A stretch of DNA of 56,995 nt from an uncultured Acidimicrobiia bacterium. GTDB taxonomy: Bacteria > Actinomycetota > Acidimicrobiia > Spongiisociales > JAOTWH01. The stretch covers positions 1 through 56,995 of the forward strand of contig CAYFYE010000005.1 of NCBI GenBank assembly GCA_964347285.1, read 5' to 3'. Position 1 is the stretch's first letter. Each line of letters begins with the position of its first letter. The notes below the pieces were generated by a model that had not been told where the DNA came from, searched no databases, and saw nothing but the letters and a program-made list of their open reading frames with translations. The translations under genes were made by a program, and so were the position numbers. Below are positions 13,644 to 33,032 of this stretch, piece by piece.

Positions 13644-14209
13644 GTCGAAGGTCCGGCCATTCCTCGTTCCCTTGCAAAATCCCACAACCGCTTCTGAAGG
13701 CCCTTTCTTCCCCGATGCAAGCGCGACATGACGGTGCCGATCGGTATGTCGAGCATCTCGGCAATCTCCTTGTAGGAGAACCCCTCGACGTCGGCCAGAA
13801 GCACCGGGAGCCGGAAGTGATCGGGCAACGCTTCCAAGGCGTCCCGTATGTCGGAGTCAACGATCTGGGCCAGCACCTCGTTCTCGGCGCTGGGAGCCGC
13901 CCCACCCCCGCCCGGTTCACCCATCCGCTTGTAGAGGTAGAAGTCCTCGAGCTCACCCAGCTCCACTTCGCTGGGTCGGCGCTGCTGCTTGCGGTAGCGG
14001 TTGATATACGTGTTGGTGAGGATGCGATACAGCCACGCCTTGAGGTTCGTTCCCGCCTCGAAGGTGTCGTAGGAGCGATAAGCCTTGAGGAACGTTTCCT
14101 GGAGCACGTCCTCCGCGTCGGCCGGGTTGCGGGTCATCCGCAACGCCGCCGAGTACAGCTGGGGGGCGAACGGGAGCGCATCCCGCTCGAAGTCGGCTTG
14201 GTCCGCCAT
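13640..14209 (-). CDS. sigR: ECF sigma factor of the SigR/SigH thiol-stress family
   Basis: [57 protein letters not shown]; followed by a ZAS anti-sigma. Confidence 0.9.
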
Positions 14210-14354
14210 TTGCTCCCACCTTACGGGAGCGATCCATGGTACCGGGGCCCGGGATTCGGGGGCATCATTGCCACCGGCCACGCAGCGTCACTGGGCAGGG
14301 CCGGCACCGGCCACGCTCAGGTAGCGCCCGGTTCGTGCCGATGCCAAGTGCCTG

Positions 14355-16856
14355 ATGCGTTGGGATCGCCGCGAACCCGCCGACGCGCTCACCGGCGACG
14401 CGCTCGGCACCGCCGTCCAGCAGGGTCGGGAGGCAGACTGGGCCGGCGACCTCGCTCACACCTGGCATTTGGCCCGTCTGGTCGGGGCCCTGTCACTGTC
14501 CGCCGGGTCGATCGGCCTTGGCGTGGTCTGGGGGTGGACGGAGGGCATCGCCGCTGGCCTGGCGATCTTGGCCGTTGTCCCGGATGCCGCATGGCGCCTC
14601 AAGCGTCCCGGGGCGGCCCTCCATTCTCTGCTCATCGATCTGGCCGCACTCGGCATCGCCGCCATGATTGCCCAGCCACCTGCGGTCGTGGTGGGCCTGC
14701 CGTTTGCCTACGCAGCTACCACGGCGTTGTTGTTCGAAACGCGGCACACCGCCGTACGACTGATCGGGTACGCCGCCCTGTGGACCGCGGCGGCCGCCGT
14801 CCTGCCGGCCCTCCAGGACGGCCCGGCGTGGCGCGCCGCCCAGATACTCACGCTCGCCATCCCCAGCTACATCGCCTTCGCCGGATTCCTGCTGGCGCTG
14901 CTCCAGGCCAACGCCCGGACCCTGAATCGACTAGAGAAAGCAAGCCGGGGAGCGCGCGCCGCTGCCAGGGCGAAGAGCGACTTCCTGCGCAATATGAGCC
15001 ACGAGGTGCGGACGCCGATGAACGGAATTCTCGGCATGGCCGAACTGATGCTCGACTCCGACTTGTCGGAAGAGCACAGGGACTATGCCCAGGTGATCCA
15101 TTCGTCGGGACGATCTCTGCTGGCCCTCATCAACGACCTCCTCGACCTGTCGTGGATAGAGGCCGGGAAGATCGAGATCGAACGCGCCCCCTTCAAGGTG
15201 AGGGACACACTCGCCGACATCTTCGAACACCACCGCCCGAAGGCTGACGCCAAGGGCCTGCGCCTCGATCTCTACGTGGCCTCAGCGACGCCCGAGGTGC
15301 TGGTCGGGGACCCGGGTCGGTTTCGGCAGATCGTCACCACCCTCGTCTCCAATGCCGTCAAGTTCACCCACGAGGGCTACGTCTGGGTGAGGGTGGGAAT
15401 CGACTCGGTCGATGCCGGGCGGGTGGTCGTGCACACCGAGGTGCAGGACACCGGCATCGGGATCGCTCCTCACGCGCAAGACAACATCTTTGGAGCGTTC
15501 AGCCAGGCGGATGGTTCGCTGACTCGAGAGCACGGGGGATCGGGAGCCGGGCTGGCCATCGCCTCGCGACTGGCCGGCCTCATGGGGGGCGCGATCTGGG
15601 TCGACTCCGTACCGGGTCGAGGAAGCACGTTCCATTTCACCGGTGAGTTTGGAACCGAGGTGCGGCCCGCCCCGGCTCGGGTAGAGGCCCGACCGCTCGA
15701 GTCTCTTTCGGCCGTGGTGGTGGCGGACACCGGAACATCTCTCGACAAGCTCGACGCCGTCTTGAGCGACCTCGGTATTCAGTCGCTCAAAGTCCCGACT
15801 CTCGGGGATGCGTTGACCGCTCTGTCGCGAGCCAGGAACGAGAACGAGCCTTTCGCGCTCGCCATCGTGGACGTGAGAGAAGGCCTGGGTGCGGCCCAGA
15901 GACTGAGCGAAACAGGTCATCTCGCCGGAACGAAGCTGGTCTTGCTGACGCCGCAGGGCCAACGGGGGGATGCGGCCCGGGCCCGGGAGTTGAACCTGGC
16001 CGCCTATCTGACCAAACCCATCGACCGCAGCAGCCTGGCCGAAGCCATTCGGCTGGTCGCCGCCAAGCCGGCCGGCGCCGATGGGGAACTGGTGACCAAG
16101 CATTCTGTTCGGGAGCTCCGGCAGATCAAGAGAGTGCTCGTTGCCGAGGACAGCCCGACCAACCGCCTCATCGTCCAAAAGCTCCTCGAGCGCCACGGCT
16201 ACGAAGTCGACTCTGCCGAAGACGGGTTCGACGCCGTGGAGGCATGGAGCCGAGGCCGCTACGACATCGTCCTCATGGACATCCAGATGCCCCGCATGGA
16301 CGGGCTCGAGGCGACTCAGGAGATCAGGCGCCGGGAACAGGGCAGGGGCGAGCACATCCCGATCGTGGCGCTGACGGCCCATGCCCTGCGTGGAGATCGG
16401 GAACGGTGTATCGGGGCCGGCATGGACGAATACCTGACAAAGCCCCTCCGGATTCAGGAGCTCCTGGCGATCCTGGGATCGGCAGGGGAGGTCCACGAAG
16501 GACCGAGTACCGAATCGCCGCCGGTCTTCAACAGCGAGACCGCCCTCGAGCTGTTTGGCAACGACCGCGAGCTCCTCGCCGGAATTCTGGAGGCCTTCCT
16601 CAAGGACTGCCCGGGTCAGCTGGCAGAGATCGCCCAGGGCGTCGACGATCGCAACGCCAAGGCAGTCCAGCGACACGCTCACAAGCTCAAGGGCGAGCTC
16701 GGAAACCTGGGGGCCGATGCCGCCTACCTCGCCGCCTCGGAGCTGGATCGGGTCGCCCGACTGGGCCGGTGGGACCAGATCGAAGAGGCATGGTCGGTGC
16801 TCGAAAGGGAGATGAGGCGATTGGAGCCGACACTCCAGGACGTGGCCGCCAGCTGA
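14355..16856 (+). CDS. Membrane hybrid sensor histidine kinase (TM region-HisKA-HATPase-REC-REC-HPt)
   Basis: MSHEVRTPMNG, NAVKFT, DTGIGI, GSGAGL, REC LVAEDS..LMDIQMP..YLTKP, HPt HAHKLKG. Confidence 0.93.
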   Translation: MRWDRREPADALTGDALGTAVQQGREADWAGDLAHTWHLARLVGALSLSAGSIGLGVVWGWTEGIAAGLAILAVVPDAAWRLKRPGAALHSLLIDLAALGIAAMIAQPPAVVVGLPFAYAATTALLFETRHTAVRLIGYAALWTAAAAVLPALQDGPAWRAAQILTLAIPSYIAFAGFLLALLQANARTLNRLEKASRGARAAARAKSDFLRNMSHEVRTPMNGILGMAELMLDSDLSEEHRDYAQVIHSSGRSLLALINDLLDLSWIEAGKIEIERAPFKVRDTLADIFEHHRPKADAKGLRLDLYVASATPEVLVGDPGRFRQIVTTLVSNAVKFTHEGYVWVRVGIDSVDAGRVVVHTEVQDTGIGIAPHAQDNIFGAFSQADGSLTREHGGSGAGLAIASRLAGLMGGAIWVDSVPGRGSTFHFTGEFGTEVRPAPARVEARPLESLSAVVVADTGTSLDKLDAVLSDLGIQSLKVPTLGDALTALSRARNENEPFALAIVDVREGLGAAQRLSETGHLAGTKLVLLTPQGQRGDAARARELNLAAYLTKPIDRSSLAEAIRLVAAKPAGADGELVTKHSVRELRQIKRVLVAEDSPTNRLIVQKLLERHGYEVDSAEDGFDAVEAWSRGRYDIVLMDIQMPRMDGLEATQEIRRREQGRGEHIPIVALTAHALRGDRERCIGAGMDEYLTKPLRIQELLAILGSAGEVHEGPSTESPPVFNSETALELFGNDRELLAGILEAFLKDCPGQLAEIAQGVDDRNAKAVQRHAHKLKGELGNLGADAAYLAASELDRVARLGRWDQIEEAWSVLEREMRRLEPTLQDVAAS

Positions 16857-16917
16857 CCGGCCGCGCCGGACGTTGCTCCGGCGACTTCTTCGGCGGGCGG
16901 TACCATCCGGGGCGTCG

Positions 16918-16993
16918 GCCGGGGTAGCTCAGACGGCAGAGCAGCTCACTCGTAATGAGCAGGTCAGGGGTTCGAGTCCCCTCCCCGGCTCCA
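16918..16993 (+). tRNA. tRNA-Thr (anticodon CGT)
   Basis: GCCGGGG/CCCCGGC acceptor stem, D arm GCTC/GAGC, anticodon arm GCTCA-CTCGTAA-TGAGC, T arm AGGGG-TTCGAGT-CCCCT, encoded CCA; 76 nt. Confidence 0.97.
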
Positions 16994-17071
16994 GGTGTTG
17001 CCCGATGATGCCGGCCCTCGGATCGTGCATCGGCGCCGGCTGGAGCAGGGGTCGTGGCTGCATTGCCTCGA

Positions 17072-19294
17072 CTAGCCGGGCAACAGCGACCGGAGTGCAC
17101 GAGCTCCGAGCCGTTGTTCGGGATCTGCTCGGCCGTCCTCTCCAAAATGGACGCCCTCTCCCTCGAGTATCTCCGCTGGATCGGTCCCCTCGTTTGACGG
17201 GCCGGAGACCGCTCGCCCGAATCGATCCAGGACTCGATGTGGGTTGGGACAACCATCGTGATTGCGGAGGTGGGCACCGACTGGGCTCGGGCGAGAATCG
17301 ATCACGGTGGCCAGATCGCCGTACGTGGTCCAGCGGCCCTCGGGGATCCTTGCCAGGATTCCGTGAAGGTCGCTCCAATCCCTTCGCTCGTTGCCGCCCT
17401 TCACCGTGCGTTGCTGCCGCCTCGACCCATCTCCGCCGTCGCGACGGGCTTTGGATCCGAGCACTCGAACAACCGTTGTGACCGGCTCACCTTGTTTCTC
17501 CAGACCACCGCCGTTGCCCCGACCAAGGCCGGCAGTTGCCGGCGGCTCGGTGTGGACCTCCCTCCCAACGGCCGCCTCCACGACATGGCCGTCCTCGACC
17601 CGGATGACCGTGTCGCACAGTTCGAGTGTGCTGAGGCGATGGGCGATCAAGAACGTGGTTCGGCCGGCGCTCAAGTCCCGTAGCGCCTCGATGATCGTGG
17701 CCTCGGTCCCCACGTCCACCGAGCTGGTCGGCTCATCCAGCACCAGCAGCGGTGCATCCTTCAGGAACGCCCGAGCGAGGGCGATGCGCTGGCGCTCTCC
17801 GCCGGAAAGCAGCACGCCACGGTCACCTACCGGTGTTTCATAGCCGCGCGGCAGGCTGGTGATGAAGTTGTGGATCCCGGCGGCACTGGCCGCGGCGACG
17901 ACCTCTTCGTCACGTGCCTCGGGGCGGGCATAGGCGATGTTCTCGGCGATGCTCGCCGAGAACAGGATGGGGTCCTGGAGCACGATTGCGTACTGGTGGC
18001 GCAGGTCGGCCAGCCGATAATCTCTGAGATCGACGCCGTCGAGGAGGATCGCGCCGGCGGTGGGGTCGTAGAAGCGCATCAGCAGGCTCACGAGGGTCGT
18101 CTTGCCTGCACCGGTCGCGCCGCTGATGCCTACGGTCGCCCCCGGCTCTACCTCGAGGTTCACGCGGTGGAGCACGATGTTGCCCCCGTGATAGGAGAAG
18201 TCGACATTGCGGAAGACGACTGCCCCCTGGGACCGCTTCAACGCTCTGGCATTCGGTCGTTCGGCGACGTCGGGGGCCTCATCGAAGAGTAGGAAGGCCC
18301 GCTCGGCGCCCGCCAGGGCATTCTGCAGGCCGGCCGCCTTGCGGCTCATCGTCTTGAGCGGGGAGTACAGCTGGGCCAGGTAGCCCAGGATGAGTAGTAG
18401 TTCGCCGAGCGTGATCACACCGGACTCGACGTGCCGGACTCCGATGTAAAGAACGGCGGACGTTCCCCCGGCCATGATGAGGGTGACCACCAGGCCGAAG
18501 GCCCCTTCGGCCAGCAGCAACCGGACCCGCCCCCGCAGCCCGGCCAGCGAGCGATCCTCGAAGCGTCCCTGCTCCCTGTCTTCCTGACCGAAGGCCTTGA
18601 CCACACGCAGGGCCGAGAGGACCTCCTGGACGACCGAGAAGGCAGCGCTGTCGAGGTCCTTCACCTCTCGGGAACGGCGCCGGATGCGTGGCCGCCACAG
18701 CGCCAGCGAAGTGAACAATGCCGGGGCGACCGCCATTGCGACCAGGGAAAGCTGCCAGTCGATACGAGCCGTCACGAAAATCATCGCAGCAACCATGACC
18801 CCGGCGGTGAAGAACGGAATCACGCCGTCGATGACGACGCGCTGGATCGAGGGTGCGTCGTATTGCAGCCTGAACAACAGATCCGCCACACCCTTCTGGT
18901 CTGCATAGGAGAAAGACAGCCTTTGCAGATGGCGGAAGAGCCGGGAGCGAAAGTCCAAGACGAGCTTCTCGCCGGTCCAGGTGCTGAGCACAGGGGCGGC
19001 GTATTCCTGCAACTGGGTCAGCACTGCCACCACCAGGAGGAGCGTCACAGCCACCAAGAGCAGGACCGTGTCGGAGGCGCCGTCGGGGACAAGACTGTCG
19101 AGGACTCCCGGCAACGGGTGGGGGCCCAGAACACTGTCGACGGCGATCGCCAACGGGACCGGCGCCAGCAGAGCCAACGGGGTCGAAAGCAGCCCAATCA
19201 GGAAGATCCCGGCGATGGGCAGCCGGTACGGCCTCGCCAGGTCGAGCAGACGTCTGAAGAGGCCCAGGTCGCTGTATGGAGAAACGGACGACAT
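17072..19294 (-). CDS. ABC exporter (TMD+NBD, MsbA/NdvA-like) with C-terminal alkyltransferase-like (MGMT/ATL) domain
   Basis: ATG at 19294 (MSSVSPYSDL); multi-TM region, GATGAGKTT, LSGGERQR, LDEPTS, AHRL. The frame continues through a linker into IPEGRWTTYGDLA...PVG...NPHRVL. Confidence 0.88.
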   Translation of the reverse strand: MSSVSPYSDLGLFRRLLDLARPYRLPIAGIFLIGLLSTPLALLAPVPLAIAVDSVLGPHPLPGVLDSLVPDGASDTVLLLVAVTLLLVVAVLTQLQEYAAPVLSTWTGEKLVLDFRSRLFRHLQRLSFSYADQKGVADLLFRLQYDAPSIQRVVIDGVIPFFTAGVMVAAMIFVTARIDWQLSLVAMAVAPALFTSLALWRPRIRRRSREVKDLDSAAFSVVQEVLSALRVVKAFGQEDREQGRFEDRSLAGLRGRVRLLLAEGAFGLVVTLIMAGGTSAVLYIGVRHVESGVITLGELLLILGYLAQLYSPLKTMSRKAAGLQNALAGAERAFLLFDEAPDVAERPNARALKRSQGAVVFRNVDFSYHGGNIVLHRVNLEVEPGATVGISGATGAGKTTLVSLLMRFYDPTAGAILLDGVDLRDYRLADLRHQYAIVLQDPILFSASIAENIAYARPEARDEEVVAAASAAGIHNFITSLPRGYETPVGDRGVLLSGGERQRIALARAFLKDAPLLVLDEPTSSVDVGTEATIIEALRDLSAGRTTFLIAHRLSTLELCDTVIRVEDGHVVEAAVGREVHTEPPATAGLGRGNGGGLEKQGEPVTTVVRVLGSKARRDGGDGSRRQQRTVKGGNERRDWSDLHGILARIPEGRWTTYGDLATVIDSRPSPVGAHLRNHDGCPNPHRVLDRFGRAVSGPSNEGTDPAEILEGEGVHFGEDGRADPEQRLGARALRSLLPG

Positions 19295-19302
19295 CGATGC
19301 CC

Positions 19303-21837
19303 TCACTCTGTCTGCTCGGTGGGCTCTACGACAGCGGCCACTCCTTCGGCTACAGCCTGACAGATAGCGGCCGTTGCCACAGCGCAGTCGTGGAGCGCCC
19401 GCCACGCCAGTACCGCGCTCGACCCCCCGAGGAGAGCGACCACTACCCACGCCCGGCTCGAGGCAGCGCCCACAGCAAGGACCGCCGTCAGCAGGGTCAC
19501 TGCCATCCACAACCACGGCCATCGGGGCCAGGAACGTATCCGTACGAGCTGCTTGCCGGATCCATGCTCCTCGACGGCCATGCGCAACCGGCAAGACCCA
19601 AACCTCCCGCCCCTCACTTCGAGGTCGAAACGGGCAAACGGTCCTCCGCGCAACGCTGTGACTCCCAACGTCGTCAGCGATGCTTCGATGCCGTAGAGCC
19701 ATTCGTCGTGGCCCCGGCCATGCTCCGTCCAGTACGCCCCTCGTTTCGGCCGGGGCAGCTTCCACCCATTCGTGCCCGTACCGCGCTCGGACATCAGGCC
19801 CGATGACAGCCGTCCGCCGAGCCGTGCCAGCGGCTGGAGTATGTGAAGGATCGCCACGATCAGGCGAAGGCGGGCCCGCCCGAGTCGAGACCGCGGCGGC
19901 CCGGTGAAGCGTGCTCGCTGGGCGCCGCTTATGGCCTGCACCGCCGCCGCCCCCGCGGCCAACGCCAGCAGCGGAGTGACGATCAGCAAGGGTGCCCAGA
20001 GCAGGCCCAGCAACGAGAGTCCGGCAAGGGTCAAGATCAAGAGGAAGAACTGGGGCATCCGAGGAAGGGACCGGATGAAACCCGACCCCGGCTCGTAGAT
20101 AGCCTGGTATTGCTCCGATCTCGGGACGGCGCCGTGAACGCGCCCGGTCGGGCGCAGGATCGGCGTCGACATCATGCCGTACACGGGCCCGCCCGGCCCG
20201 CCCCGACTCGGGACGCTGTACTTCCCGAGCCACTTCGCCTCGAGCAAGGCCTCGGCCGAGCCGTATCCGAATTGCTGTCGCCAGTACGAGCGTATCGTCG
20301 GCCGAGGGTGGTGCCACACCAAGGCGGCCGGGTTGAAGCCGAGCGTCCGACCGCGCTCGCGTATCCGCCGGCAAGCGTCGACGTCGTCGCCGGCAGAACG
20401 GAAGTGCTCGTCGAAGCCACCGATCTCCTCGAGAATGGATCTGCGGAAGGCCATGTTGCAGCCGGCGAGATGTTCCGCCTCTCCATCGGACAGGAGGACG
20501 GGTACAGGGTTGCCCGGCGAGTTGGCGACGCACTGCGACATCACCCGGCCGTCCGCCGGAGCAATACTCGGGCCGCCCACGCCGGCGTGTGGGGTGCTGC
20601 CGAACGTGTGGGCAATGTACGCCAGCCAGTGGGGGTCGGGGTAGGCATCGTCGTCGATGTAGGCGATGATTTCGCCGGTCGCCGCCTGGAGGCCGGCGTT
20701 GCGCGCTCGCCCGAGGCCGCCGTGCTGGGTTCTGATCAGGTTGACGCCGTCGAATTGTCGGACGATCACCGCCGTGTCGTCCGTCGAGCCGTCGTCGACG
20801 ACGATCGTCTCGTAGTCCGGATAGTCGAGTCCGGCGATCCCCTCGAGGCACTCCCTGATGCGGGAGCCGCCGTTGTAGCTGCACACGACTATCGAGATCC
20901 GCGGCCAGGTGCGTCTGCTGGCGAAGGGCGCCTTCGCAAAGAGCGGGTGCAGGGCGACCAAAGCCGGTTTCTCGGTGCGGTCAGGGCGGGTGAGGCCGAA
21001 CCGGCCGTCGTGAGACTGGTCGGTGACCATGCCGTTGTCGTCGGTCCAGGTGTGGGCAAACGCTCCGGCGCAGCCCGACTCGAAGATGGTGCCGATGTGT
21101 CGAGCCAGGACATGTGCTTGGGAGTCTTCACCGCGGCTTTTGGCATCGACGCCGACCGCGCCGATGAGCAGAGGGCTGTTGCCTGCCAGGGTTTGGAGCC
21201 GGGCCAGGTGAACCGAGAGGCTCGCAGGCGGCTCCGGGAGCACGCTGAAGCACAGGAGATCGAGAAAGTCGAGGACGAGGTCTTCGGCCGACGGGTGGTT
21301 GGCGTACGTGACGAGGCCGTCCGGATCTTCGGATTTGGCCGCGTCGTACAGGCGGGCCAGCAAACGCTCCGTCCGTCGGCGACCGTGCCAGCGGACGACC
21401 TGTGCCGGGATTTCGTTGGCGACCGAGTAGCAGAGCAGGGCGGGGTGTCCAGCACAATGTCGAACCCCGCGGCGGATGACGGCCTCGATTCCCGATGATC
21501 GTCGTAAGTCGATGGACTCGCCGATGAGCTGATCCGTCGCCAGTCCCACCATGACGTACAAGCCGTGATCCGCGGCGGTGTCGAGGAGGCTCCGAGCTGG
21601 GACTCTGTGAGTCCGGACCGCGTTGACCCCACGGGCGGCCATGTGGGCGAAATCCCTCTCGACCACGTCTGGTGGAGGGAACTCGTACCCATTGGGGGAC
21701 CGGAACCCGCCGTAGGTGACTCCGCGCACGTAGAGCTTCTCGCCCCGCATCGCCAAGAACTTGCCGACGGCACGCGGGCGATCAAACGGGATCTTCCGAT
21801 CGCCCTCTCTGACCTCCCGGTCGGCACCGCTTCCCAT
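19303..21837 (-). CDS. GH-A-clan TIM-barrel/GT2 glycosyltransferase/TM fusion, paralog 2 (degenerate GH domain)
   Basis: KLYVRGVTYG, GVNAVR, ANEIP; GT2 SIVVCSYN, DDGS, YIDDD, GCNMAFR, GDDVD; C-terminal TMs. Confidence 0.88.
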   Translation of the reverse strand: MGSGADREVREGDRKIPFDRPRAVGKFLAMRGEKLYVRGVTYGGFRSPNGYEFPPPDVVERDFAHMAARGVNAVRTHRVPARSLLDTAADHGLYVMVGLATDQLIGESIDLRRSSGIEAVIRRGVRHCAGHPALLCYSVANEIPAQVVRWHGRRRTERLLARLYDAAKSEDPDGLVTYANHPSAEDLVLDFLDLLCFSVLPEPPASLSVHLARLQTLAGNSPLLIGAVGVDAKSRGEDSQAHVLARHIGTIFESGCAGAFAHTWTDDNGMVTDQSHDGRFGLTRPDRTEKPALVALHPLFAKAPFASRRTWPRISIVVCSYNGGSRIRECLEGIAGLDYPDYETIVVDDGSTDDTAVIVRQFDGVNLIRTQHGGLGRARNAGLQAATGEIIAYIDDDAYPDPHWLAYIAHTFGSTPHAGVGGPSIAPADGRVMSQCVANSPGNPVPVLLSDGEAEHLAGCNMAFRRSILEEIGGFDEHFRSAGDDVDACRRIRERGRTLGFNPAALVWHHPRPTIRSYWRQQFGYGSAEALLEAKWLGKYSVPSRGGPGGPVYGMMSTPILRPTGRVHGAVPRSEQYQAIYEPGSGFIRSLPRMPQFFLLILTLAGLSLLGLLWAPLLIVTPLLALAAGAAAVQAISGAQRARFTGPPRSRLGRARLRLIVAILHILQPLARLGGRLSSGLMSERGTGTNGWKLPRPKRGAYWTEHGRGHDEWLYGIEASLTTLGVTALRGGPFARFDLEVRGGRFGSCRLRMAVEEHGSGKQLVRIRSWPRWPWLWMAVTLLTAVLAVGAASSRAWVVVALLGGSSAVLAWRALHDCAVATAAICQAVAEGVAAVVEPTEQTE

Positions 21838-21975
21838 TGCCCGCCTGGCCTCGTCCCCGGTCCCTTGACACTCTACGCGTTCAGCTACGGCGACCTTACC
21901 GCATCAGCGGTGGTGCTACCCCAACCCCCCGAGGAGTCGGCCCCGGCGCCATGTCCCCGGGCCTACGGCGTTGAG

Positions 21976-23289
21976 TCAGTTGCCCGGGAATGCCGTCGGC
22001 GGCTGCCCATCGCAGCTCGACGCGTCGGGAAGCTGCCCGGCGCCGCCCATGGCCTCTTCGAGCAACCGGGGCAGCACCCGGTCCGAGTCGAAGAATTCCT
22101 CTGCAATCGACCTGGCGGCCTGGGAGTGCCGGGCGTAGTCGGAGTCGACTTCCCGCACGGCATCCACCGCCTCGTCCAGAGTTTGGAACGCCAAGATGCC
22201 CTCGCCCGCCGGCAGCACACCTGCGAAGCCGGTGTCCTGGACTACGACGGGCCGCCCGCTCGCCAGATAGCAGGCACTCCGCTCGCTGAACCAGCCGGGC
22301 CGACCCCGGACGTAGGCGTGCTTGGCAACAGTCCACTCGGCTCGCGAAGACTGGATGTACCAGCGATACCGGTCCGGATCACCGCATCTCTCAAAGGCGT
22401 CGACGACGTTCCAGCCGGCGTTGCCGAGCAGGTCTCGTGGAGTCCAGCGTTCGTTCTCTCGTGCCGATGCGCGGCGAGGGGTCGACTGGTCCTCGGTTTC
22501 CCAGTCTTGATGCCGGGTCGATCCCAGCGCCACCTCCATCGCCAGGGGATCGACCTTTTGCGGTAGCTCGAGAAAGCGCTTGAACTCCACGTCCTTCTGC
22601 CCGTAGGAGTCGCTGCCGTAACGTGCCGGTGCGTAGCTCGTCCAACTCATGACAGTGGTAAAGACCTCGCGAGCGCCCCCAGAGGGCGGCCACTCGGAGA
22701 GAACGATGGGCTGGCGGGTCGGCCGCCACCGGTGTCGGGTCCCCGGCATGGTTGCCCAGAGCCGCTCCCCGAAGCTGAAGTGCACGTCGTGAGCATCGGC
22801 GCGCCTGCGCACCGGGCCGTCTTCGGCGGTAGCGATCTTGGCCTGGGTAACTACCGGATCGGTGTCGATGTAGACCAGGCGCGGGATGGGTCGGTACTTC
22901 TCTGGATATTCGAGGGAGCCGGAAATATTGAGCAGCAGGTCGGCGGAGCGGATGACGGCCCGGCGGCGCTCGGCGGACAGACCGAACCACTCGGCTCCTG
23001 GTGGGTAACGGTAGGCCCAACGGTCGTCGAGGTCGAAGCGAGCCATCAACCTCGCCAGGTAATCCACGTTCTGTCCGCTGGCGGCTACCCGATTCTTTGC
23101 AGAAGTGCCGCTGTCCACGAGGTATGGCACTTCTCCCGAATCCTCGAAGTAGTACACGTCGTGTCCGAGCCGGACCAGCCCGAGCAAGAAATGGAGGTAG
23201 TGCCAGGCGAGCCCTCCCAGAGGTGGATGCTGACAGATCAGGCCGGTCACCACGATGCGCAGGGCCGGGGTCGGCTGGGACACCGCCAT
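21976..23289 (-). CDS. Putative GT-B glycosyltransferase
   Basis: GGLAWHY..LGHDVYYFED N-terminus; FSERSACYLASGRPVVVQDTG GT-B C-terminal signature. Confidence 0.78.
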   Translation of the reverse strand: MAVSQPTPALRIVVTGLICQHPPLGGLAWHYLHFLLGLVRLGHDVYYFEDSGEVPYLVDSGTSAKNRVAASGQNVDYLARLMARFDLDDRWAYRYPPGAEWFGLSAERRRAVIRSADLLLNISGSLEYPEKYRPIPRLVYIDTDPVVTQAKIATAEDGPVRRRADAHDVHFSFGERLWATMPGTRHRWRPTRQPIVLSEWPPSGGAREVFTTVMSWTSYAPARYGSDSYGQKDVEFKRFLELPQKVDPLAMEVALGSTRHQDWETEDQSTPRRASARENERWTPRDLLGNAGWNVVDAFERCGDPDRYRWYIQSSRAEWTVAKHAYVRGRPGWFSERSACYLASGRPVVVQDTGFAGVLPAGEGILAFQTLDEAVDAVREVDSDYARHSQAARSIAEEFFDSDRVLPRLLEEAMGGAGQLPDASSCDGQPPTAFPGN

Positions 23290-23296
23290 CACTTCC

Positions 23297-25807
23297 TCAT
23301 CGAGAAGGCTCGGTATCGTCGGCCCGCAATTGCCGGAACGTCCGCAGGTAGGAGGCGGTGGCAACGGCGCAACCGCCGAGAGCCATCAGGGCCAATACCA
23401 GCGCCGAGGACGCCAGCATGGCCGAGGCAGCCCAGGCTCCGTCGAGGCCGGCGGGGACGGCGAGCACCGCCAGCAGCGCTATCAGAAACAGGGAGCCCGC
23501 CCCGACCCTGGGCCAGGCGCGGAAACGAACTCTCTGACGGTCGCCTTGGCCCTCCACGGCCAGGCGGGCGCGCGCAGACCCGAGCCAACCGCCACGGATC
23601 TCGAGATCCCAAGGTTCATGGCGGCCGCCCCGGGCGGTGACGACTCCCTGGCGCCGCAGGGCCGCCTCCACGTGTTCGAGATGCTGCTCGGGTTCCGAGT
23701 GACGGTCGCACCAGAAATCGCCGATGTGCGCTCGGGGCAGGCTCATGTGACGTGGCCGCCGCCGGGGCGCCCGTCCGGCCTTCACCCGACCCCAGCCGCG
23801 AGCGACCGGCTGGATCAGGTGGAGCAGAGCGGTCAACGAAAGCAGACTCAGCCGGGCTACCGAAGAACGGGGCCGATTCGTAGAAAGGGCCCGAGAGGCG
23901 TCGACCAGCGCTCGGACAGCGAGGGCGCCGACGGCCAGGGCGAGCAGGGGCACGGCGAGCAGAGCCGGCGCCCACAGAATCCCCAATACGGAAAGCCCGG
24001 CGAGGACGCCGATCAGGAGATGGGATTCAGGCAGCAGCGACCATGACGACAACGCGCTCGGGGCCCGCTCGTAGATCGACTGGAACGGCGCCTGTCCCCA
24101 AACGCCGTGGTACACCTGCGGGCGCCCCCACGACCCGCCTCCCCGTCCGGCACCGTAGATCCGGCCCTGCCAGCGGGGGCGTCCGAGGGGACCGTGCCTG
24201 TTTGCCCACTTGCCGGCAAGCAAGCCTTCGGCGTACCCGTAGCCCACCTGCTGTTTCAGATAGGCCCGAACCGTGGTACGGCGATGGTGCCAGACCATCG
24301 CAGCCGGGGAAAACCCCAGGCTCCAACCTCGCTCGCGCAGACGCCAACAGACGTCGACATCGTCGCCGGCGGCGTTGAACCGAGGATCGAACCCCCCGAT
24401 GGCCTCGAGAGCCGACTTGCGGAACGCCATGTTGCAGCCCGGCAAGTGCTCTGCTTCCTCATCCGTGAGGAGCACGTGGCTGGGGCTTCCAGGAGCGTTG
24501 GCGACGCATTCGGCGACCAACCCGCCTCGAGGAGGCGGAACGTTTGGACCCCCGACCCCGACGTGGTCGCTCGTCGAAAACGTCGCGGCGAGATAGCTCA
24601 GCCAATGCGGGTCGGGGTAGGCGTCGTCGTCGAGGTAGGCGACGATCTCGCCGGTTGCTGCTGCTAGACCGGTGTTCCGGGCGCTGCTCAATCCTCGGTT
24701 CTCGGTGCTGATCACGCGGAAGCCGTATTCGGCGGCGATGGCCCCGGTTCCATCGCTCGACCCGTCGTCGACCACGATCACTTCGAAGTCCGGGTACTCC
24801 AGCTTCAGCAGGCCCTCGCAGCACTCCCGTATGGTGCGGCTCCCATTGAAGCTGCAAACGACGACCGAGATGCGGGGCCATGTTGAGGGCTCGGTGGGAA
24901 ATGGTCCTCTGTCGAAGGCACGGCGCACCGCGATCAGAGCGGGTTTGGGCCTGCGCTGCTCATCGGTCAGGCCGAATTTCCAGTCGTCTACGACGGTGTC
25001 GCCCCGGTACCACTCGTCGGTCCAAGAGAAGATGAAGAGGCCGGCGCAGCCTGCAGCGAAGGACGTGCGGACCTGCCAGTCGAGCACCTCGGCCTGTGCC
25101 GCCTCACCATTTCGCAGGGCGTCGAGCCCCACTTCGCTCATGATCACCGGCTTGTCGCCGGCAATGTTCTGGAGCCGGGCGAGGTAGGCCTCCAACGGCT
25201 CCTGCGCCTCCAGATATACGTTGTAGCAATGCAGATCGAGAAAGGGCAGCTGGAGGTACTCGGTCGTCGGATAGTTCACATAGGTGACGAGGCCACCCGG
25301 GTCTTCCTGCTTCACAGCGCGGCTCATGTGCTTCAAGAAGCGCTCCACGCGCCGCGGGCCGAGCCAGCGGACGATCGAAGCCGGGATCTCGTTGCCCAAG
25401 GCGTAGCAGAGCAGGGCCGGATGGCCGCGACAGCTGCGAACCTTGGCACGTACGGTTTCCTCGATGTCCGGAGCATCCTCGGCCTTGCGGTCGATCAGGT
25501 AGCCGACGTACTGCTCGACGGACAGACCGACCATGACCCGCAGGCCGTGCCGCTCCGCCGCATCGAGGAGGCCCGGCGGCGGCGTCGTATGGGGGATGCG
25601 AACCGCATTCATGCCGTTGGCGGCAATCCGAGCGAAGTCCTGCTCGACCATCTCGAGGTCGTGGTATTCGTTGCCGTCGGCGTCGGGTCGAAAAGCTCCG
25701 TAGGTCACGCCTCGCACGTAGAGCTTCTCGTTGCCGGCGAAGAGAAACTTGCCCCCGACTCGCGGCCTGGCGTCGAAGCGCACCCGGCGGTGCTCGGGCG
25801 CACTCAC
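23297..25807 (-). CDS. GH-A-clan TIM-barrel/GT2 glycosyltransferase/TM fusion, paralog 1
   Basis: KLYVRGVTYG, GMNAVR, GNEIP (acid/base), IMSEVG (nucleophile), FSWTDEW; GT2 DDGS, YLDDD, GDDVD; C-terminal TMs. Confidence 0.9.
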   Translation of the reverse strand: MSAPEHRRVRFDARPRVGGKFLFAGNEKLYVRGVTYGAFRPDADGNEYHDLEMVEQDFARIAANGMNAVRIPHTTPPPGLLDAAERHGLRVMVGLSVEQYVGYLIDRKAEDAPDIEETVRAKVRSCRGHPALLCYALGNEIPASIVRWLGPRRVERFLKHMSRAVKQEDPGGLVTYVNYPTTEYLQLPFLDLHCYNVYLEAQEPLEAYLARLQNIAGDKPVIMSEVGLDALRNGEAAQAEVLDWQVRTSFAAGCAGLFIFSWTDEWYRGDTVVDDWKFGLTDEQRRPKPALIAVRRAFDRGPFPTEPSTWPRISVVVCSFNGSRTIRECCEGLLKLEYPDFEVIVVDDGSSDGTGAIAAEYGFRVISTENRGLSSARNTGLAAATGEIVAYLDDDAYPDPHWLSYLAATFSTSDHVGVGGPNVPPPRGGLVAECVANAPGSPSHVLLTDEEAEHLPGCNMAFRKSALEAIGGFDPRFNAAGDDVDVCWRLRERGWSLGFSPAAMVWHHRRTTVRAYLKQQVGYGYAEGLLAGKWANRHGPLGRPRWQGRIYGAGRGGGSWGRPQVYHGVWGQAPFQSIYERAPSALSSWSLLPESHLLIGVLAGLSVLGILWAPALLAVPLLALAVGALAVRALVDASRALSTNRPRSSVARLSLLSLTALLHLIQPVARGWGRVKAGRAPRRRPRHMSLPRAHIGDFWCDRHSEPEQHLEHVEAALRRQGVVTARGGRHEPWDLEIRGGWLGSARARLAVEGQGDRQRVRFRAWPRVGAGSLFLIALLAVLAVPAGLDGAWAASAMLASSALVLALMALGGCAVATASYLRTFRQLRADDTEPSR

Positions 25808-26002
25808 TGTCGGCTGCCAAGGGTGCCCGAGCCGCCCCGGGCAAGAGGTGCCGAGGGAACAGCGAGGATGTAACGGCCGAGCCCGGGTGCCGAGGCAGGT
25901 TCCAACGTGACCTCCGTGCGTTCCGCTTCTCTCGCTGCGAAGAGCGGCGTCGCGGGCATACCGCCGGCCGAGACGACCCCCGACCTCGGTTTGCGCTCCC
26001 GC

Positions 26003-26038
26003 CCACCACTGGTGGTCTTATACCACAAGCAGTGGTGG
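26003..26038. promoter_or_regulatory. Bulged inverted repeat overlapping a minus-strand extended -10-like element upstream of the glycosyltransferase genes
   Basis: CCACCACTG/CAGTGGTGG plus GTGGT/ACCAC arms; the minus strand reads TGGTATAAG across the loop. Confidence 0.5.
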
Positions 26039-26108
26039 AGAGCACCGCAGCGCCTCACCCGTCCGGAAGCGATTTCCGCACCAGCACTCCAGACAGCGCT
26101 CGGTGCGC

Positions 26109-27119
26109 TCAAGCGAGGACGACCCTGCTCAACTTCTCAGCCTGGCCGACCAGCGCCGAGACCTTTCCCTCGGAGAAGCCCTTTTCTATGCCGCGGCTCA
26201 GCCAGTCCAGAATCCGATGGAAACGGAAGCAGTCCATCACCCGTGGCAGTTCCACCTCGTCGGGGACAGGAACGGCGTGGTGAATGGCCGCATTCCGGTA
26301 GGCCCGATAGATCCGCTCTCGCGCCGGCGATCGAACGCCGTCGGTGAAGAACGCCAGGTCATAGAGGGTCGCGCCCACGGCAGCCGACTCCCAATCGACG
26401 GCGCACACCCGCACCGGCTCGCACCGTGTGTCGAGCAGTACGTGCCAGGGGATGTAGCCGCCGTGCACGAGGCTGAGCGGTTGGCTGGTCATAACGTCGA
26501 CGACCCGACCGTACGATTCGAGGGCTCTCGCCAGACGCCCGGCACAGGCGGGCGCGAGTCGGGACACATTGCGCTGGGACTCGTCAGCCTTGGAATGGAA
26601 GAACGCCGCGTCGTGCCGGATCAGGAAGTCGGCTTCGGCCAGCAGACGCTCATGGCGTCGAAAGTATTCCTGAAGCCGGGCCAGCCACGCCGCCGCCGGC
26701 GGGCCGTGCCTCCCATCCGCCTCTTCCACAACGACGCCGCCGACCAGTTCCAGCAACAGCCAGTACGTGGCCCGAGACTCGTCCCAGATAGATCCGCAAT
26801 ACGCCGCGGTGCCCAGGTCCGACTGTGCCAGCAGATCTCGGTAGACGCGCATCTCGCGATCGCGTCTCTGCCCAAGATCGTCCTTGGTTTTGCGGGAGCG
26901 GCCGAAGTCCTTGAGGAAGAAGAAGAGGTCCTCGCCGCCGCCCAGGGTCACGGTCACGACCTCGCACTTGTAAGAGCCGACATACGGGAACCGCTTGCGA
27001 CGGATGCTCTCGATCACCGTTCGGCCGCCACGCTCAGCGGCGATGATGGGCTCCAGAAGTGTGCGCAACGAAGCTCCACCTCCACCTTTGGATCCGGTCG
27101 TTCTCGTGGTTCGAGTCAT
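26109..27119 (-). CDS. APH/choline-kinase-fold phosphotransferase, probable pseudokinase
   Basis: FFLK, WLLLELV, LVHGGYIPWH in place of HGDxxxxN, VDWE, YDLA. ATG at 27119. Confidence 0.8.
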   Translation of the reverse strand: MTRTTRTTGSKGGGGASLRTLLEPIIAAERGGRTVIESIRRKRFPYVGSYKCEVVTVTLGGGEDLFFFLKDFGRSRKTKDDLGQRRDREMRVYRDLLAQSDLGTAAYCGSIWDESRATYWLLLELVGGVVVEEADGRHGPPAAAWLARLQEYFRRHERLLAEADFLIRHDAAFFHSKADESQRNVSRLAPACAGRLARALESYGRVVDVMTSQPLSLVHGGYIPWHVLLDTRCEPVRVCAVDWESAAVGATLYDLAFFTDGVRSPARERIYRAYRNAAIHHAVPVPDEVELPRVMDCFRFHRILDWLSRGIEKGFSEGKVSALVGQAEKLSRVVLA

Positions 27120-27147
27120 CGGCCCTACATCCGCTTCGGCGAGCGCG

Positions 27148-28101
27148 CTACGACAGCCACGCTGCCCTCTCGACGAGCTGGTCCAGCCAGGAGCGGCACA
27201 GCGCGATCTCCCCGACCGAACCCTCCTTCCGCTCCAGACGCGGCATCGCCCAGTCGAGGTAGACGAGACACCGGAAGATCCTCCCAACGGTGGCCAGGCG
27301 CCGGAGCTGGAGCTGATCCATTTCCGCCCGACTTTCCTTGACGGTCGTCCAGTACACGTCGAGGTCGACACCAGAGATGTCTTCGGCCGGAACTCCCCAA
27401 CCCGCCTTCTCCCAGTCGATCGGCAGCAAGACGAGACCGGATGAGCCGCGGCGTACGTACACGTTGTGACCTATGAAGTCACCGTGTACGAGAGTATCCG
27501 GGACGCCTCGGCACACCTGCTCGAACTCGTCCCAGCTTGTCGCAAGTCCCTCGCAGTGTTCGAGGACCGCCTCGAGAACGACTGCGTCGTGGCCCGGCAC
27601 AGCGTCCTCGGCGAGCTGCTGGTGCAGCGCGGCGCCTGCCGATCGAAGAAGGTTTCGATAGTGCTGCGACCGCCGCGACGGAAGCCGGTCCGCGGCCGGG
27701 GGCCGGCCGAGCGAGCGGTGGAGAACGCCGAGCCACCGGCCGGCACCCGCTCGATGGTCGTCACGCCGGCGGCGATACGAGCCGACGGTCACGTCCTCGA
27801 GGAAGATCCAGCAGAATCCACGCTCGGGCTCCTCGGCCGCTCCGTAGTAACGGAGGAGCGGAAGCGGAACCTGCGGAAGGATCTCCTCGTAGACGACTCG
27901 TTCCACCGCGGCCGTCGCCTGGGGCGAGCGCTTGGCGATGACATCACCCTCTCGATCGCCGGCGCCGCGCAAGCGACACACCCCCGCTCCCCCACTGTCC
28001 GATTTGAGCACCTCGACACCCTTCGGCCCCACGGGTACTCCCCCGAGCCCGTGCCAGGCGCGGACGGCTGCGGCGGCCAGGGCGTCTTCCCCGCCGGTCA
28101 T
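27148..28101 (-). CDS. APH/choline-kinase-fold phosphotransferase
   Basis: VIAKR, WIFLEDV, LVHGDFIGHN, IDWE; ATGA overlap with the upstream kinase. Confidence 0.87.
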   Translation of the reverse strand: MTGGEDALAAAAVRAWHGLGGVPVGPKGVEVLKSDSGGAGVCRLRGAGDREGDVIAKRSPQATAAVERVVYEEILPQVPLPLLRYYGAAEEPERGFCWIFLEDVTVGSYRRRRDDHRAGAGRWLGVLHRSLGRPPAADRLPSRRSQHYRNLLRSAGAALHQQLAEDAVPGHDAVVLEAVLEHCEGLATSWDEFEQVCRGVPDTLVHGDFIGHNVYVRRGSSGLVLLPIDWEKAGWGVPAEDISGVDLDVYWTTVKESRAEMDQLQLRRLATVGRIFRCLVYLDWAMPRLERKEGSVGEIALCRSWLDQLVERAAWLS

Positions 28102-29216
28102 GATTGCGACCGCCGGAAGACGGGCGGAGGTGCTGCTGCGCCCGGCGCCGGCCCCCAGCTGGCACCGTCGATCGATCGCGCCAGCGCTGCCGAGTAGAGC
28201 CTGTACTTCTCCACGACGTCTTGCGACGGGTAGTCGAAGACGGGGAAGCTCAGGTCGATGACCTTCAGTGCCCAAAAGAGCTGGCCGAGATAGGCCAGTT
28301 GCCGGATCGATTCGAGCCGGAGAGCGGGCCAGTGTTCTCGCGTCACTTCCCAGTAAGCGAGGTAGTCGGGCTCTCGGACCGGAGGACCACCGAAAGGCAG
28401 TGCCAGCTGCCCCAGGTCCGTCGCCGCCAAGCCCCAGCCGGCCCCACCCCAGTCGAAGACGGCGACCTCCACTCCGTCGCCGGCTTCCCGGACGTGCACG
28501 TTTTTCGGCAGGCAATCGGTGTGGACGAGGGTCCTGGGAACATGCTCGCAGAATCCCTCCAAGTCCATCCAGCAAGACTCGAGGTACTCACACAGCAAGC
28601 TGATGTGATCGAGGACCTCCACCCCCTCGGGCGAAATCGAGGACCGAGCCTGCAGTCGGGGGAGGGTCTCCCTAATCGATTGCAGATGCCCACGGTAGAA
28701 ATCGGGGCCCCGCTCGGCGAAGGCGTTCCGCGAGGAGCTGCGCTCGCTGAACGCTTGCAGGGCGCCCAGCCAGCGCCCGACCAGACGACGGTGCTCCTCC
28801 GCTCCCGGCGAGTATTGCTCACCGCCGACGTCTTCGAGGAACAGCCAGGCAAAGGATGCACCTTCTTCTTCGACAAATCCGTAGTAGTCGGGCGAACTCG
28901 AGGGCAGCCGAGACAGGACCTGCTCGTACACGTCCCGCTCGACGACGGCCTTCTGCAGATGGGCTCGCTTGGCTATGACCCCCGCATTCCCCGGCCCGAT
29001 GCCGGCCAGTCGATAGACCGAGCTTCTCGATTTGTGCTTGAGCACCTCGATGTAGTCGGGCTCGACGGGCGCCGCCACGAGATGGCTCCACGCCTGGACG
29101 GCGGGGTGCTGGCGAAGATTCGTGGTGAGGATTGCGTCCACCCGCTTCATCCCGGCCTGCTTGGTCGCTCCACCGATCCTATCTTTGGACGCCGGCCTCC
29201 CGTGCCCGTCGCTCAC
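28098..29216 (-). CDS. APH/choline-kinase-fold phosphotransferase
   Basis: VIAKR, WLFLEDV, LVHTDCLPKN, FDWG, TDLG. The start may be the ATG near 29150. Confidence 0.87.
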   Translation of the reverse strand: MSDGHGRPASKDRIGGATKQAGMKRVDAILTTNLRQHPAVQAWSHLVAAPVEPDYIEVLKHKSRSSVYRLAGIGPGNAGVIAKRAHLQKAVVERDVYEQVLSRLPSSSPDYYGFVEEEGASFAWLFLEDVGGEQYSPGAEEHRRLVGRWLGALQAFSERSSSRNAFAERGPDFYRGHLQSIRETLPRLQARSSISPEGVEVLDHISLLCEYLESCWMDLEGFCEHVPRTLVHTDCLPKNVHVREAGDGVEVAVFDWGGAGWGLAATDLGQLALPFGGPPVREPDYLAYWEVTREHWPALRLESIRQLAYLGQLFWALKVIDLSFPVFDYPSQDVVEKYRLYSAALARSIDGASWGPAPGAAAPPPVFRRSQS

Positions 29217-29319
29217 CTATCCGGACCTGCACTCCATCGGGGAAGATCCGTTGCCGCGCCGGGTTCCGGAATCCGCTCTGGTCCTGCGTCTTCGACTCCA
29301 GAGCCGTGCTGAGGCGGCT

Positions 29320-30102
29320 TCAGCCCTCGGCGGGACGCGGCAGCGGGATGAGACGGTGGTCCTTGGTGAACAGCCGCCGTACCGCGCCGAATCCAACGAC
29401 CGCGGTAGTGGTGGCTACCGATCCCAGCACCAGATACATCACCGCCGCCTGGACCCGCACCGCCTCTACCGGGTCCACCCCGGCGAGGATCAAGCCCGTC
29501 ATCGCTCCGGGCAGGAACACGATGCCGACCGCCTTGGTGGTCTCGATCTGCGGGGTGAGCGCGGTGGAGACCGCACTCCGCAGATAGGGTCGGGCCGCGA
29601 TCATCCCCGGATGCCCCAGCGCCAGCCGGGCCTCGACCTCCATGCGCCGGTCGCGCAGCTCCTCGACGATGCGGCGGGCCACCAGAACCGTGGCGGTCAT
29701 CGAGTTGCCCACCATCATCCCTGCGATCGGGACCAGCGCCCTGGCCTCCAGCGGAAAGACCCCGAAGCCGAAGAGGATCCCGAGTGTCACCAGTGCTGCC
29801 GCTGCGAAGGCAGCAAGGGCTATGGGACGGATACCGGGGACCTCATCGGCCCGGCGACGCACCGTCTCGGCGGCGAACACGATCATCACCGCCACCCACA
29901 GCCAGGACCACACCAGGGGAGTTTCGGAGTCGATCACCAAGGCGAGGCCGGCCCCGATGATGAGCAGCTGTACCAGCGCACGCCCGGCAGCCCACAGCAT
30001 GCGGCCTTCCAGGCCGAGGCGCTGCCACAGCGAGAGCACCACAGCCACCCCGACCAGCGACAGAGAGACCGCCAGGCCGGCGAGGGTGACATCACCCGGC
30101 AT
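29320..30102 (-). CDS. fetB: ABC transporter permease, FetB/UPF0014 family
   Basis: RALVQL, IAGMMVGNSM, EARLALG, GIVFLPGAMTGLILAG..P..AV..Q. Confidence 0.85.
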   Translation of the reverse strand: MPGDVTLAGLAVSLSLVGVAVVLSLWQRLGLEGRMLWAAGRALVQLLIIGAGLALVIDSETPLVWSWLWVAVMIVFAAETVRRRADEVPGIRPIALAAFAAAALVTLGILFGFGVFPLEARALVPIAGMMVGNSMTATVLVARRIVEELRDRRMEVEARLALGHPGMIAARPYLRSAVSTALTPQIETTKAVGIVFLPGAMTGLILAGVDPVEAVRVQAAVMYLVLGSVATTTAVVGFGAVRRLFTKDHRLIPLPRPAEG

Positions 30103-30802
30103 GAGCGTCCCCGGCCAAGAATTCGGCGACCTGCGGTTCGGCATCGATGAGATCGCCGGGCTCGCCCTCAAACCGGAGTCGACCCTCCAGCATCACGATC
30201 AGGTAGTCGGCCATGCGGAGCGCCTGGTCCAGGTCGTGGGTAACCCAGAGAATGGGCACCCCCTCGTCGGCCAGGTGACGAGCAAGCATCTCTAGACCGC
30301 GTCGTGGCTTGGCGTCGAGGGACGAGGTGACCTCGTCCATCAGCACGACCTCCGGGTCGGTGAGCAGCGTGCGGGCCAGGCAGGCCCTCTGCCCCTCGCC
30401 GCCCGACAGCTCGGCGGCCGGTCGGGAAAGGAAGGATCCATCCAGCTCGGCCCGCTCCAGTACCGACTCCATCTCGGCGTGTGATGCACCAGGGTCGGCC
30501 ACAGCCAGGTTGTCAGCCACGGTGCCCCCGAACAGGGTGGGACGCTGGAACACCATTCCCGCTTTGCGCCGCAGGACGAGCGGATCGAGGTCGGCCAGAT
30601 CGGCGCCGTGAAGCAGCACCCGTCCGGCGGTGGGCACCTCGAGCCGGTTGCAGAGCCGCAGCAACGTGGTCTTGCCCGAGCCGGACGGTCCCACGATTGC
30701 AGTGATCCCCGATGCCGGGATGGAAGCGGTGACGTCCACCAGCATTGGGCGAGGGAGGGCATCGATGGTCACCCGTTCGAATTCGTAGAGGATCTGGTCC
30801 AC
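30092..30802 (-). CDS. ABC transporter ATP-binding protein (FetA-like)
   Basis: GPSGSGKTT, LSGGEGQR, LMDEVTSSLD, VTHD; overlaps fetB. Confidence 0.88.
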   Translation of the reverse strand: MDQILYEFERVTIDALPRPMLVDVTASIPASGITAIVGPSGSGKTTLLRLCNRLEVPTAGRVLLHGADLADLDPLVLRRKAGMVFQRPTLFGGTVADNLAVADPGASHAEMESVLERAELDGSFLSRPAAELSGGEGQRACLARTLLTDPEVVLMDEVTSSLDAKPRRGLEMLARHLADEGVPILWVTHDLDQALRMADYLIVMLEGRLRFEGEPGDLIDAEPQVAEFLAGDAHAG

Positions 30803-30890
30803 GAGGCGAGGCTATCGAAGGGAAACGAGCCGCGGCCGCGCCGCCGTCGGGTCGGGGCACCCGTTCCGGGATCCCCGAGGCCCGATCGGA

Positions 30891-32987: not shown

Positions 32988-33032
32988 GGGCTTCCCTCGG
33001 CTCCTGCTACCTACCCACCCGACTCTACCGGG

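Follow-up and report, generated by a model that had tools for sequence, protein, structure and literature searches.

We analysed a 56,995-nucleotide stretch of DNA (the window) from an uncultured Acidimicrobiia bacterium, in which seven minus-strand open reading frames (ORFs) fill positions 17072-29216 beside tRNA-Thr(CGT). They encode, in order, three APH-fold kinases, a fusion of a clan GH-A glycoside hydrolase (GH) with a family 2 glycosyltransferase (GT2) and a membrane region (synthase copy 1), a GT-B enzyme, a second synthase copy, and an ATP-binding cassette (ABC) exporter. The genes are co-oriented, as an earlier sequence-only reading of this DNA had described, and Pfam bears out the domains proposed there, with APH (PF01636) in three proteins (E 6.5e-16, 5.4e-12 and 4e-12), two fusions of Glyco_hydro_2_C with GT2, one PF13524 GT-B protein, and one protein with ABC_membrane and ABC_tran. 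The tight spacing described there also stands, with gaps in order of -4 (ATGA), 28, 301, 7, 138 and 8 nt, as does the distance of about 80 nt from the tRNA (78 nt between the exporter stop codon and the tRNA 3' end). However, the genes do not start after the tRNA but end there, converging on it. The gene set probably specifies ABC-exported glycan synthesis by unclassified enzyme families. The system is real and conserved, and apparently uncharacterised in the literature, in keeping with the earlier failure to recognise a known pathway: none of the seven proteins reaches a curated NCBIfam equivalog cut-off among the families shown (the best 25 of 30 and the best 25 of 189 for two of the proteins), and no description of the set was found in the literature searched, which was mostly open-access, without supplements, and for most papers the start of the abstract.

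The synthase and the genes that recur with it

The gene set recurs far beyond chance. A scan of species genomes yielded at least 601 stretches, at least 593 of them relatives, from which 79 loci were kept. Where at least 5 kb of downstream DNA is available (51 of the 79), an exporter is present in 50 loci, a GT-B enzyme in 45, and a kinase, judged by BLAST label, in 20; a hidden Markov model search finds kinases in 28 of all 79. In the reverse test, 32 of 78 loci found through the GT-B enzyme extend to at least 10 kb, with a synthase in 18, an exporter in 23, and neither in 8. The loci carry 18 phylum labels, mostly of uncultured Gemmatimonadota, Chloroflexota, Acidobacteriota, Verrucomicrobiota and Pseudomonadota, and co-occurrence in other genomes, which the sequence-only reading had set as its test, is wide. 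Cultured carriers are Nibrella viscosa, N. saemangeumensis and Pleomorphovibrio marinus. Near the host the distribution is patchy (4 of 60 relatives, none of 7 genomes in the family, and 5 among a further 300 genomes from this class). The core consists of the GH-A, GT2 and membrane fusion, an MsbA-type exporter, and a GT4-like GT-B enzyme, with kinases or acetyltransferases as alternative add-ons, and the usual gene order elsewhere is synthase, exporter, kinase, GT-B.

Synthase-like sequences are numerous: a search with the GH domain retrieves 898 clusters (50% identity) with E 1e-30 or lower, and the database label of the synthase family is only 'GT2 family glycosyltransferase'. Several core genes also occur fused to one another or to other genes. 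One 1421-aa protein (P0249) joins GH, GT2 and ABC, a single case in which read-through is possible; ABC-kinase fusions are found in 10 of 62 loci; and P0149, with 25 member sequences, joins UDP-glucose dehydrogenase to GH-GT2. Four other synthase homologues (P0243, P0252, P0229 and P0232) are fusions as well: two end in NHL repeats, one begins with a response-regulator receiver, and one, a longer protein, has an extra GT2 match. A contig labelled Thermoplasmata (L017), possibly through a binning error, carries two synthase copies and a kinase.

The structure model of copy 1 (pLDDT 89, pTM 0.89) shows a TIM barrel up to about residue 300, GT2 up to about residue 535, and then the membrane region. 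The first hydrophobic segment lies after GT2, at residue 592, and by hydropathy GT2 and everything ahead of it are free of hydrophobic leaders and membrane segments in all 62 full-length representatives (150 representatives listed). With no leader or helix ahead of GT2, we predict that the GH and GT2 domains both face the cytoplasm, a placement drawn from hydropathy rather than from a dedicated topology predictor. In the copy 1 GH, E140 is the acid/base and E225 the nucleophile; of 68 aligned rows, all have the former and 67 the latter. Among covering representatives, the two glutamates are kept in 145 of 147 (acid/base) and 131 of 138 (nucleophile), five of the nucleophile misses being alignment gaps.

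The best solved relative of the GH profile is GH157 (E 1.3e-14, nucleophile aligned), followed by a GH2 galacturonidase (1.1e-11) and GH158 (1.9e-10). In the fold comparison, GH157 (Z 31.5, root-mean-square deviation 2.5, 294 aligned) and GH2 uronidases (Z 30.7) are level at the top, ahead of GH5 and GH72 (Z 26-27). No Pfam GH17 model matched at E 0.01, where Glyco_hydro_2_C matched instead, and the Pfam GH72 transglycosylase model matches 5 of 13 homologues scanned. GH157, GH158, GH72 and the GH2 uronidases thus share the fold and both catalytic glutamates with the window GH at about 20% identity, aligned at acid/base and nucleophile in the case of GH157; unlike these enzymes, the window GH is fused to a synthase and has no export signal. 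The GH2 galacturonidase also has a Lys near its C-terminus, which presumably binds uronate, and at that place the window GH has an aromatic motif. On this sequence and fold comparison, a beta-glucan is the favoured substrate.

GH2-like exo-glycosidases tied at the top of the fold matches would also suit salvage or detoxification, in which incoming sugars would be degraded and activated by the GH and kinases before conjugation by the transferases. APH-fold anomeric sugar kinases do exist, and AmgK and NahK activate incoming sugars. We nevertheless regard such a role as highly improbable, given that the GH is fused to GT2 in 120 of 120 best matches of that length class, that the transporter is of exporter type and has no recurring adjacent solute-binding protein, and that decoration enzymes predominate nearby.

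The GT2 domain carries the motifs DDG, DxD and GDD, and QQxGYG where QxxRW would be expected; the two Q, the Y and the last G are kept in 68 of 68 rows. QxxRW is the motif of processive synthases (PMC10237404). The best NCBIfam model is MftF (TIGR03965, E 1.6e-47), although both copies fall short of its cut-off of 280 bits, with 162 and 148. MftF is described as an iterative beta-1,4-glucosyltransferase building a short chain of up to nine glucoses (PMC7491314), but it has no GH domain, and no mycofactocin genes were recognised among the neighbours. Because it has few membrane helices and no QxxRW, the synthase GT2 probably does not translocate its own product, and the absence of QxxRW fits a need for a separate exporter. 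A search of the Atlas with the synthase C-terminus matched unnamed clusters only. The membrane region of the synthase, modelled in complex with the membrane dimer of the exporter, scored 0.00 (mark 0.32), which is evidence neither way.

The sequence-only reading had taken GH17-GT2 NdvB as its model, merging two different NdvB proteins, the Cgs-type and the GH17-GT2 type. Pseudomonad NdvB/'Orphan' proteins do combine an N-terminal TIM-barrel GH with GT2 and membrane helices (PMC10237404). According to the main text of that paper, which does not mention an ABC transporter or ndvA, their GH17 is periplasmic behind a signal peptide, membrane helices separate GH from GT2, and QxxRW is present (PMC10237404). 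In the window system, in contrast, GH and GT2 are adjacent and predicted to be cytoplasmic, the GH is GH157/GH2-like, QxxRW is absent, and an exporter is nearly always linked. These differences in defining features rule out membership and set the NdvB model aside.

The other NdvB offers a closer parallel. In the Cgs (ChvB, rhizobial NdvB) and Cgt/NdvA pair, GT2 elongation and a glycan-cutting domain likewise reside in one membrane protein, an ABC transporter exports the product, and acid substituents are added (PMC11842490). With a glycosyltransferase and a glycan-cutting domain in one membrane protein and a linked ABC exporter, the window system would, by this analogy, work like Cgs/Cgt without being a member. 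Cgs is about 300 kDa and contains GH189 and GH94, whereas the window protein of 836 aa has GH-A and GT2 only; the window exporter falls below the NdvA and ChvA cut-offs, and the published account of Cgs/Cgt, as far as consulted, describes no counterpart of the GT-B enzymes and cytoplasmic kinases (PMC11842490).

Exporter, GT-B enzyme and decoration genes

All NCBIfam scores of the exporter lie below the respective cut-offs (MsbA 413 bits, HepA 344, NdvA 329, ChvA 274), and the cut-offs of 733 for NdvA and 585 for ChvA make it no orthologue of either. The 30 exporters that come from kinase-bearing loci belong without exception to a single clade of 52 rows (support 100) that includes the window exporter, and 19 of 22 exporters from acetyltransferase loci lie outside it; one locus labelled kinase-free (L022), whose exporter sits in the kinase-associated clade, does have a kinase. 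This pattern fits an exporter matched to its decorated cargo, although shared descent alone could also explain it. Two tandem exporter genes, possibly encoding a heterodimer, occur in six loci (L028, L034, L055, L060, L073 and L077), none of which has a kinase. The host assembly has a second exporter of the kinase-associated clade (58% identity) at L080:12684-15455 (G000 C2), with an intact kinase after it. This exporter is sister to Anaerolineales exporters, and the 0.6 kb that remain up to the contig end contain no synthase.

The GT-B enzyme resembles BshA (Z 24.6, root-mean-square deviation 3.4, 325 aligned, 14% identity) and, in a tie, PimA (Z 24.4), with 11-14% identity to its GT4-fold neighbours. 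In sequence it matches PF13524 only (27.8 bits) and neither PF00534 nor PF13439, its family profile finds no PDB sequence below E 0.01, and the Atlas search returned unnamed clusters only. The modelled enzyme is thus GT4-like in fold only, and from this fold we infer that its branches would be alpha-linked.

These two proteins bear on a further explanation, in which GT2 and GT-B enzymes extend a glycan on a membrane lipid acceptor, the ABC protein flips it as PglK or MsbA do, kinases and acyltransferases modify or cap it, and chain editing or release falls to the GH. MsbA and HepA are the exporter's closest models, enzymes that use lipid acceptors, such as AglG, are among the matches of the GT2 domain (E 4.7e-24), and the fold neighbours of the GT-B enzyme include PimA and PglA. 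With up to four or five GT-B paralogues and additional GT2/GT4, pyruvyl and acetyl transferases, a single locus can look like one for a surface polysaccharide, and PglK, HepA and MsbA-type pathways similarly place a fused membrane and ATPase exporter beside several glycosyltransferases. Yet none of the cut-offs for these pathways is reached, the core here is GH-GT2, and no initiating phosphoglycosyl transferase, Wzx, Wzy or ligase appears among the recurring genes or among 145 unlabelled neighbour ORFs, of which the last 400 residues each, in nearby DNA only, were scanned. The same scan found no initiating transferase, flippase or polymerase of lipopolysaccharide or capsule systems (Wzx/Wzy, Wzm/Wzt, Kps). 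LpxC and Omp85 were not found in the host genome (90% complete). To our knowledge, lipid-linked glycan pathways do not include a cytoplasmic GH that is strictly conserved and catalytically intact. We hold a lipid-linked product to be a tentative possibility, the strongest of the competing explanations.

In 62 loci with at least 1.5 kb downstream we found kinases in 27, YdjC deacetylases in 22, hexapeptide acetyltransferases in 11, ATP-grasp ligases in 10, pyruvyl transferases in 7, and acyltransferase-3 in 4. A kinase and a hexapeptide acetyltransferase never occur together in these loci (Fisher p 0.001, an overstated value since the loci are related). By their sequence labels, the accessory genes look like glycan decoration. 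The phosphocholine substitution mentioned in the sequence-only reading is unsupported, as LicD was not found in the host genome (90% complete) or in the scan of the 145 neighbours. Sugar-nucleotide genes, by BLAST label, are UDP-xylose synthase-like in 13 of the 62 loci, GalE in 8, and UDP-glucose dehydrogenase in 6. In the host assembly, a GalE-like and UDP-xylose-synthase-like pair runs into a contig end (L181:77-2331, G000 C58) and a partial UDP-glucose dehydrogenase lies at another (L182:2263-2964, G000 C160); genes like these precede the synthase in other genomes. Seven loci (L004, L026, L031, L035, L047, L065 and L066) have outer-membrane barrel genes inside or beside the operon, which in these diderm hosts hint at outer-membrane passage or uptake, and DUF5916 occurs in L003, L006, L033, L064, L072 and L076.

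The kinases, together with deacetylases and ligases, could instead belong to a cluster for a small glycoside or aminoglycoside-like metabolite, with APH proteins for self-protection and the ABC protein secreting the compound. The kinases weakly match capreomycin and viomycin phosphotransferases (E 5.9e-6 and 0.009), and a GT-B enzyme with a deacetylase and a ligase echoes mycothiol/bacillithiol logic, with BshA as top fold match and YdjC, PIG-L and ATP-grasp genes as neighbours. We judge this improbable: there are no recurring scaffold genes (the 145 neighbours include one aminotransferase and one radical SAM protein), most loci have no kinase, with acetyltransferases in its place, and the core is a membrane GT2 synthase.

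Features of the host locus

Copy 2 of the synthase keeps its GT2 motifs, while its GH nucleophile is changed from E to A and the conserved Y184, N196, Y198, W266 and W276 positions are also lost. The sequence-only reading saw a pairing of active with dead enzymes here, and the lost residues are real in both the copy 2 GH and kinase 3. As a conserved design of the synthase, however, the pairing was rejected, because both GH glutamates are kept in 240 of 240 nearest homologue matches (120 for each copy), those of copy 2 being only 52-58% identical to it. Copy 2 is best read, from this comparison, as private decay or a specialisation that retains GT2. A recent duplication was likewise rejected: the copies are 50% identical and not sisters in a FastTree phylogeny without a clade test, where the sequence grouping with copy 1 is from Acidimicrobiia and the one grouping with copy 2 carries a Planctomycetota label.

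In kinase 3 the catalytic D is replaced by G and the Asn is also lost. The catalytic position in nine readable locus homologues of this subtype is Glu in seven, Gln in one, and Ser in one, and never Asp. Kinase 3 thus belongs to a conserved atypical subtype, and may be either a pseudokinase or an enzyme of altered chemistry. A lone kinase of this third subtype, with Glu at the catalytic position, lies among unrelated neighbours at L081:8494-9468 (G000 C77).

The ATL domain noticed earlier in the exporter is present as a weak match over about residues 630-740 (PF01035, 20.4 bits, cut-off 27), and a stand-alone relative of this tail exists elsewhere in the host genome. As a component of the system it was rejected, since none of the 79 genome loci carries it. 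By sequence comparison, the dead GH copy and the ATL tail are private to the host genome, and these local oddities, like the tRNA site, are not features of the system.

Table 1. Positions of the genes and the tRNA in the window.
Feature	Position	Strand	Remarks
APH-fold kinase 1, 350 aa from ATG	28098..29150	-	H-x-D, N and D-W motifs all present; alternative start GTG at 29216
APH-fold kinase 2, 317 aa	27148..28101	-	Overlaps kinase 1 at ATGA; catalytic motifs all present
APH-fold kinase 3, 336 aa, atypical subtype	26109..27119	-	Catalytic Asp replaced by Gly
Synthase copy 1, 836 aa: clan GH-A barrel, GT2, C-terminal membrane region	23297..25807	-	
GT-B enzyme, 437 aa, unnamed family, GT4-like fold	21976..23289	-	
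Synthase copy 2, 844 aa: intact GT2 motifs, GH without nucleophile	19303..21837	-	
MsbA-type ABC exporter, 740 aa, kinase-associated clade, private ATL-like tail	17072..19294	-	
tRNA-Thr(CGT), insertion site	16918..16993	+	

The end of fetB comes immediately after the tRNA in two genomes of the family (G002 and G007) but lies 12.3 kb from it in the window. A third (G001) has different DNA after the tRNA, and in two others (G003 and G004) the contigs end at or just past it. Relative to G002 and G007, the block is thus an insertion at tRNA-Thr. It shows no mobile-element signature: the tRNA 3' end is not repeated close to the far border, and the block contains no integrase. The plasmid search gave no match to the block, and its GC content at third codon positions is only slightly low (0.77-0.81 versus 0.78-0.88 in flanking genes). 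Read depth in run X1, possibly the source sample, is roughly even, at about 7-9 in most bins and higher in the two bins at and beside the tRNA, and none of the listed pieces covers the stretch from end to end. The locus does not follow the usual gene order, and the second exporter with its kinase on C2 groups with Anaerolineales exporters, which together suggest that the block is a patchwork from at least two acquisitions, probably from two sources.

Promoter and terminator scans gave results at chance level, and no riboswitch or other Rfam RNA besides the tRNA was found in window positions 14000-31000, nor any in 10 loci. A hybrid sensor kinase (HisKA, HATPase, two receivers and Hpt) lies just before the tRNA at 14355-16856; in five of five family genomes checked, the small ORF upstream abuts the tRNA, so both sides of it carry extra DNA here. 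Beyond fetAB, positions 30891-35009 encode two further proteins: a metallophosphoesterase that is probably secreted and has FG-GAP-like repeats, and a trypsin-like protease carrying an Ig domain. The host genome has four WhiB genes, which together with the missing Omp85 and LpxC fits a monoderm actinobacterium, the host proposed in the sequence-only reading.

Proposed pathway

We put a probability of roughly 0.55 on a pathway in which a beta-linked oligosaccharide is built in the cytoplasm, cut or transglycosylated, decorated, and then exported by the ABC protein. The inverting GT2 would repeatedly add a UDP-sugar unit, most likely glucose, building a short chain with beta linkages on the inner face of the membrane. 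Next to GT2, the retaining GH-A domain would cut this chain through a glycosyl-enzyme intermediate and so set its length, releasing it by hydrolysis or by a cyclising or branching transfer. GT-B enzymes would then attach alpha-linked side sugars, and APH-fold kinases would phosphorylate sugar hydroxyls directly from ATP; other genomes would decorate with acetyl-, pyruvyl- and acyltransferases, deacetylases and ATP-grasp ligases instead. Finally, the exporter would move the finished charged oligosaccharide to the cell envelope. In the host locus, copy 1 would act as the complete synthase and copy 2 as a transferase alone. Sequence, structure prediction and comparison supply the architecture, the placement of GH and GT2, the catalytic residues and the gene linkage from which we infer these steps.

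Several points weigh against this pathway. The loci were picked by similarity to the query with relatives included, which makes their counts non-independent, and 14 of the 32 long GT-B loci have no synthase on the stretch examined. The tie between GH157 and GH2-uronidase folds at about 20% identity makes glucan specificity weak, while the UDP-xylose synthase-like, GalE and UDP-glucose dehydrogenase genes, together with YdjC, point to non-glucose sugars. The exporter scores higher with MsbA and HepA than with NdvA or ChvA, so lipid-linked cargo is possible. Product, substrate and activity are predicted only, and transglycosylation and hydrolysis are indistinguishable from sequence. That the GH-A domain is specifically a cytoplasmic transglycosylase which cyclises or branches the GT2 product is unlikely, if still worth considering; if true, it would be an independent route to exported cyclic beta-glycans, decorated by a new glycosyltransferase family and by direct ATP-dependent phosphorylation, and used in monoderm and diderm uncultured bacteria without a described envelope glucan.

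If the proposed build, cut, decorate and export pathway is right, common environmental bacteria would have an envelope glycan that has so far gone without description, made with GH-A and GT-B families that are both unclassified, and with glycan kinases. GH2-like matches that are counted as degradation genes in metagenomes would then be biosynthetic.

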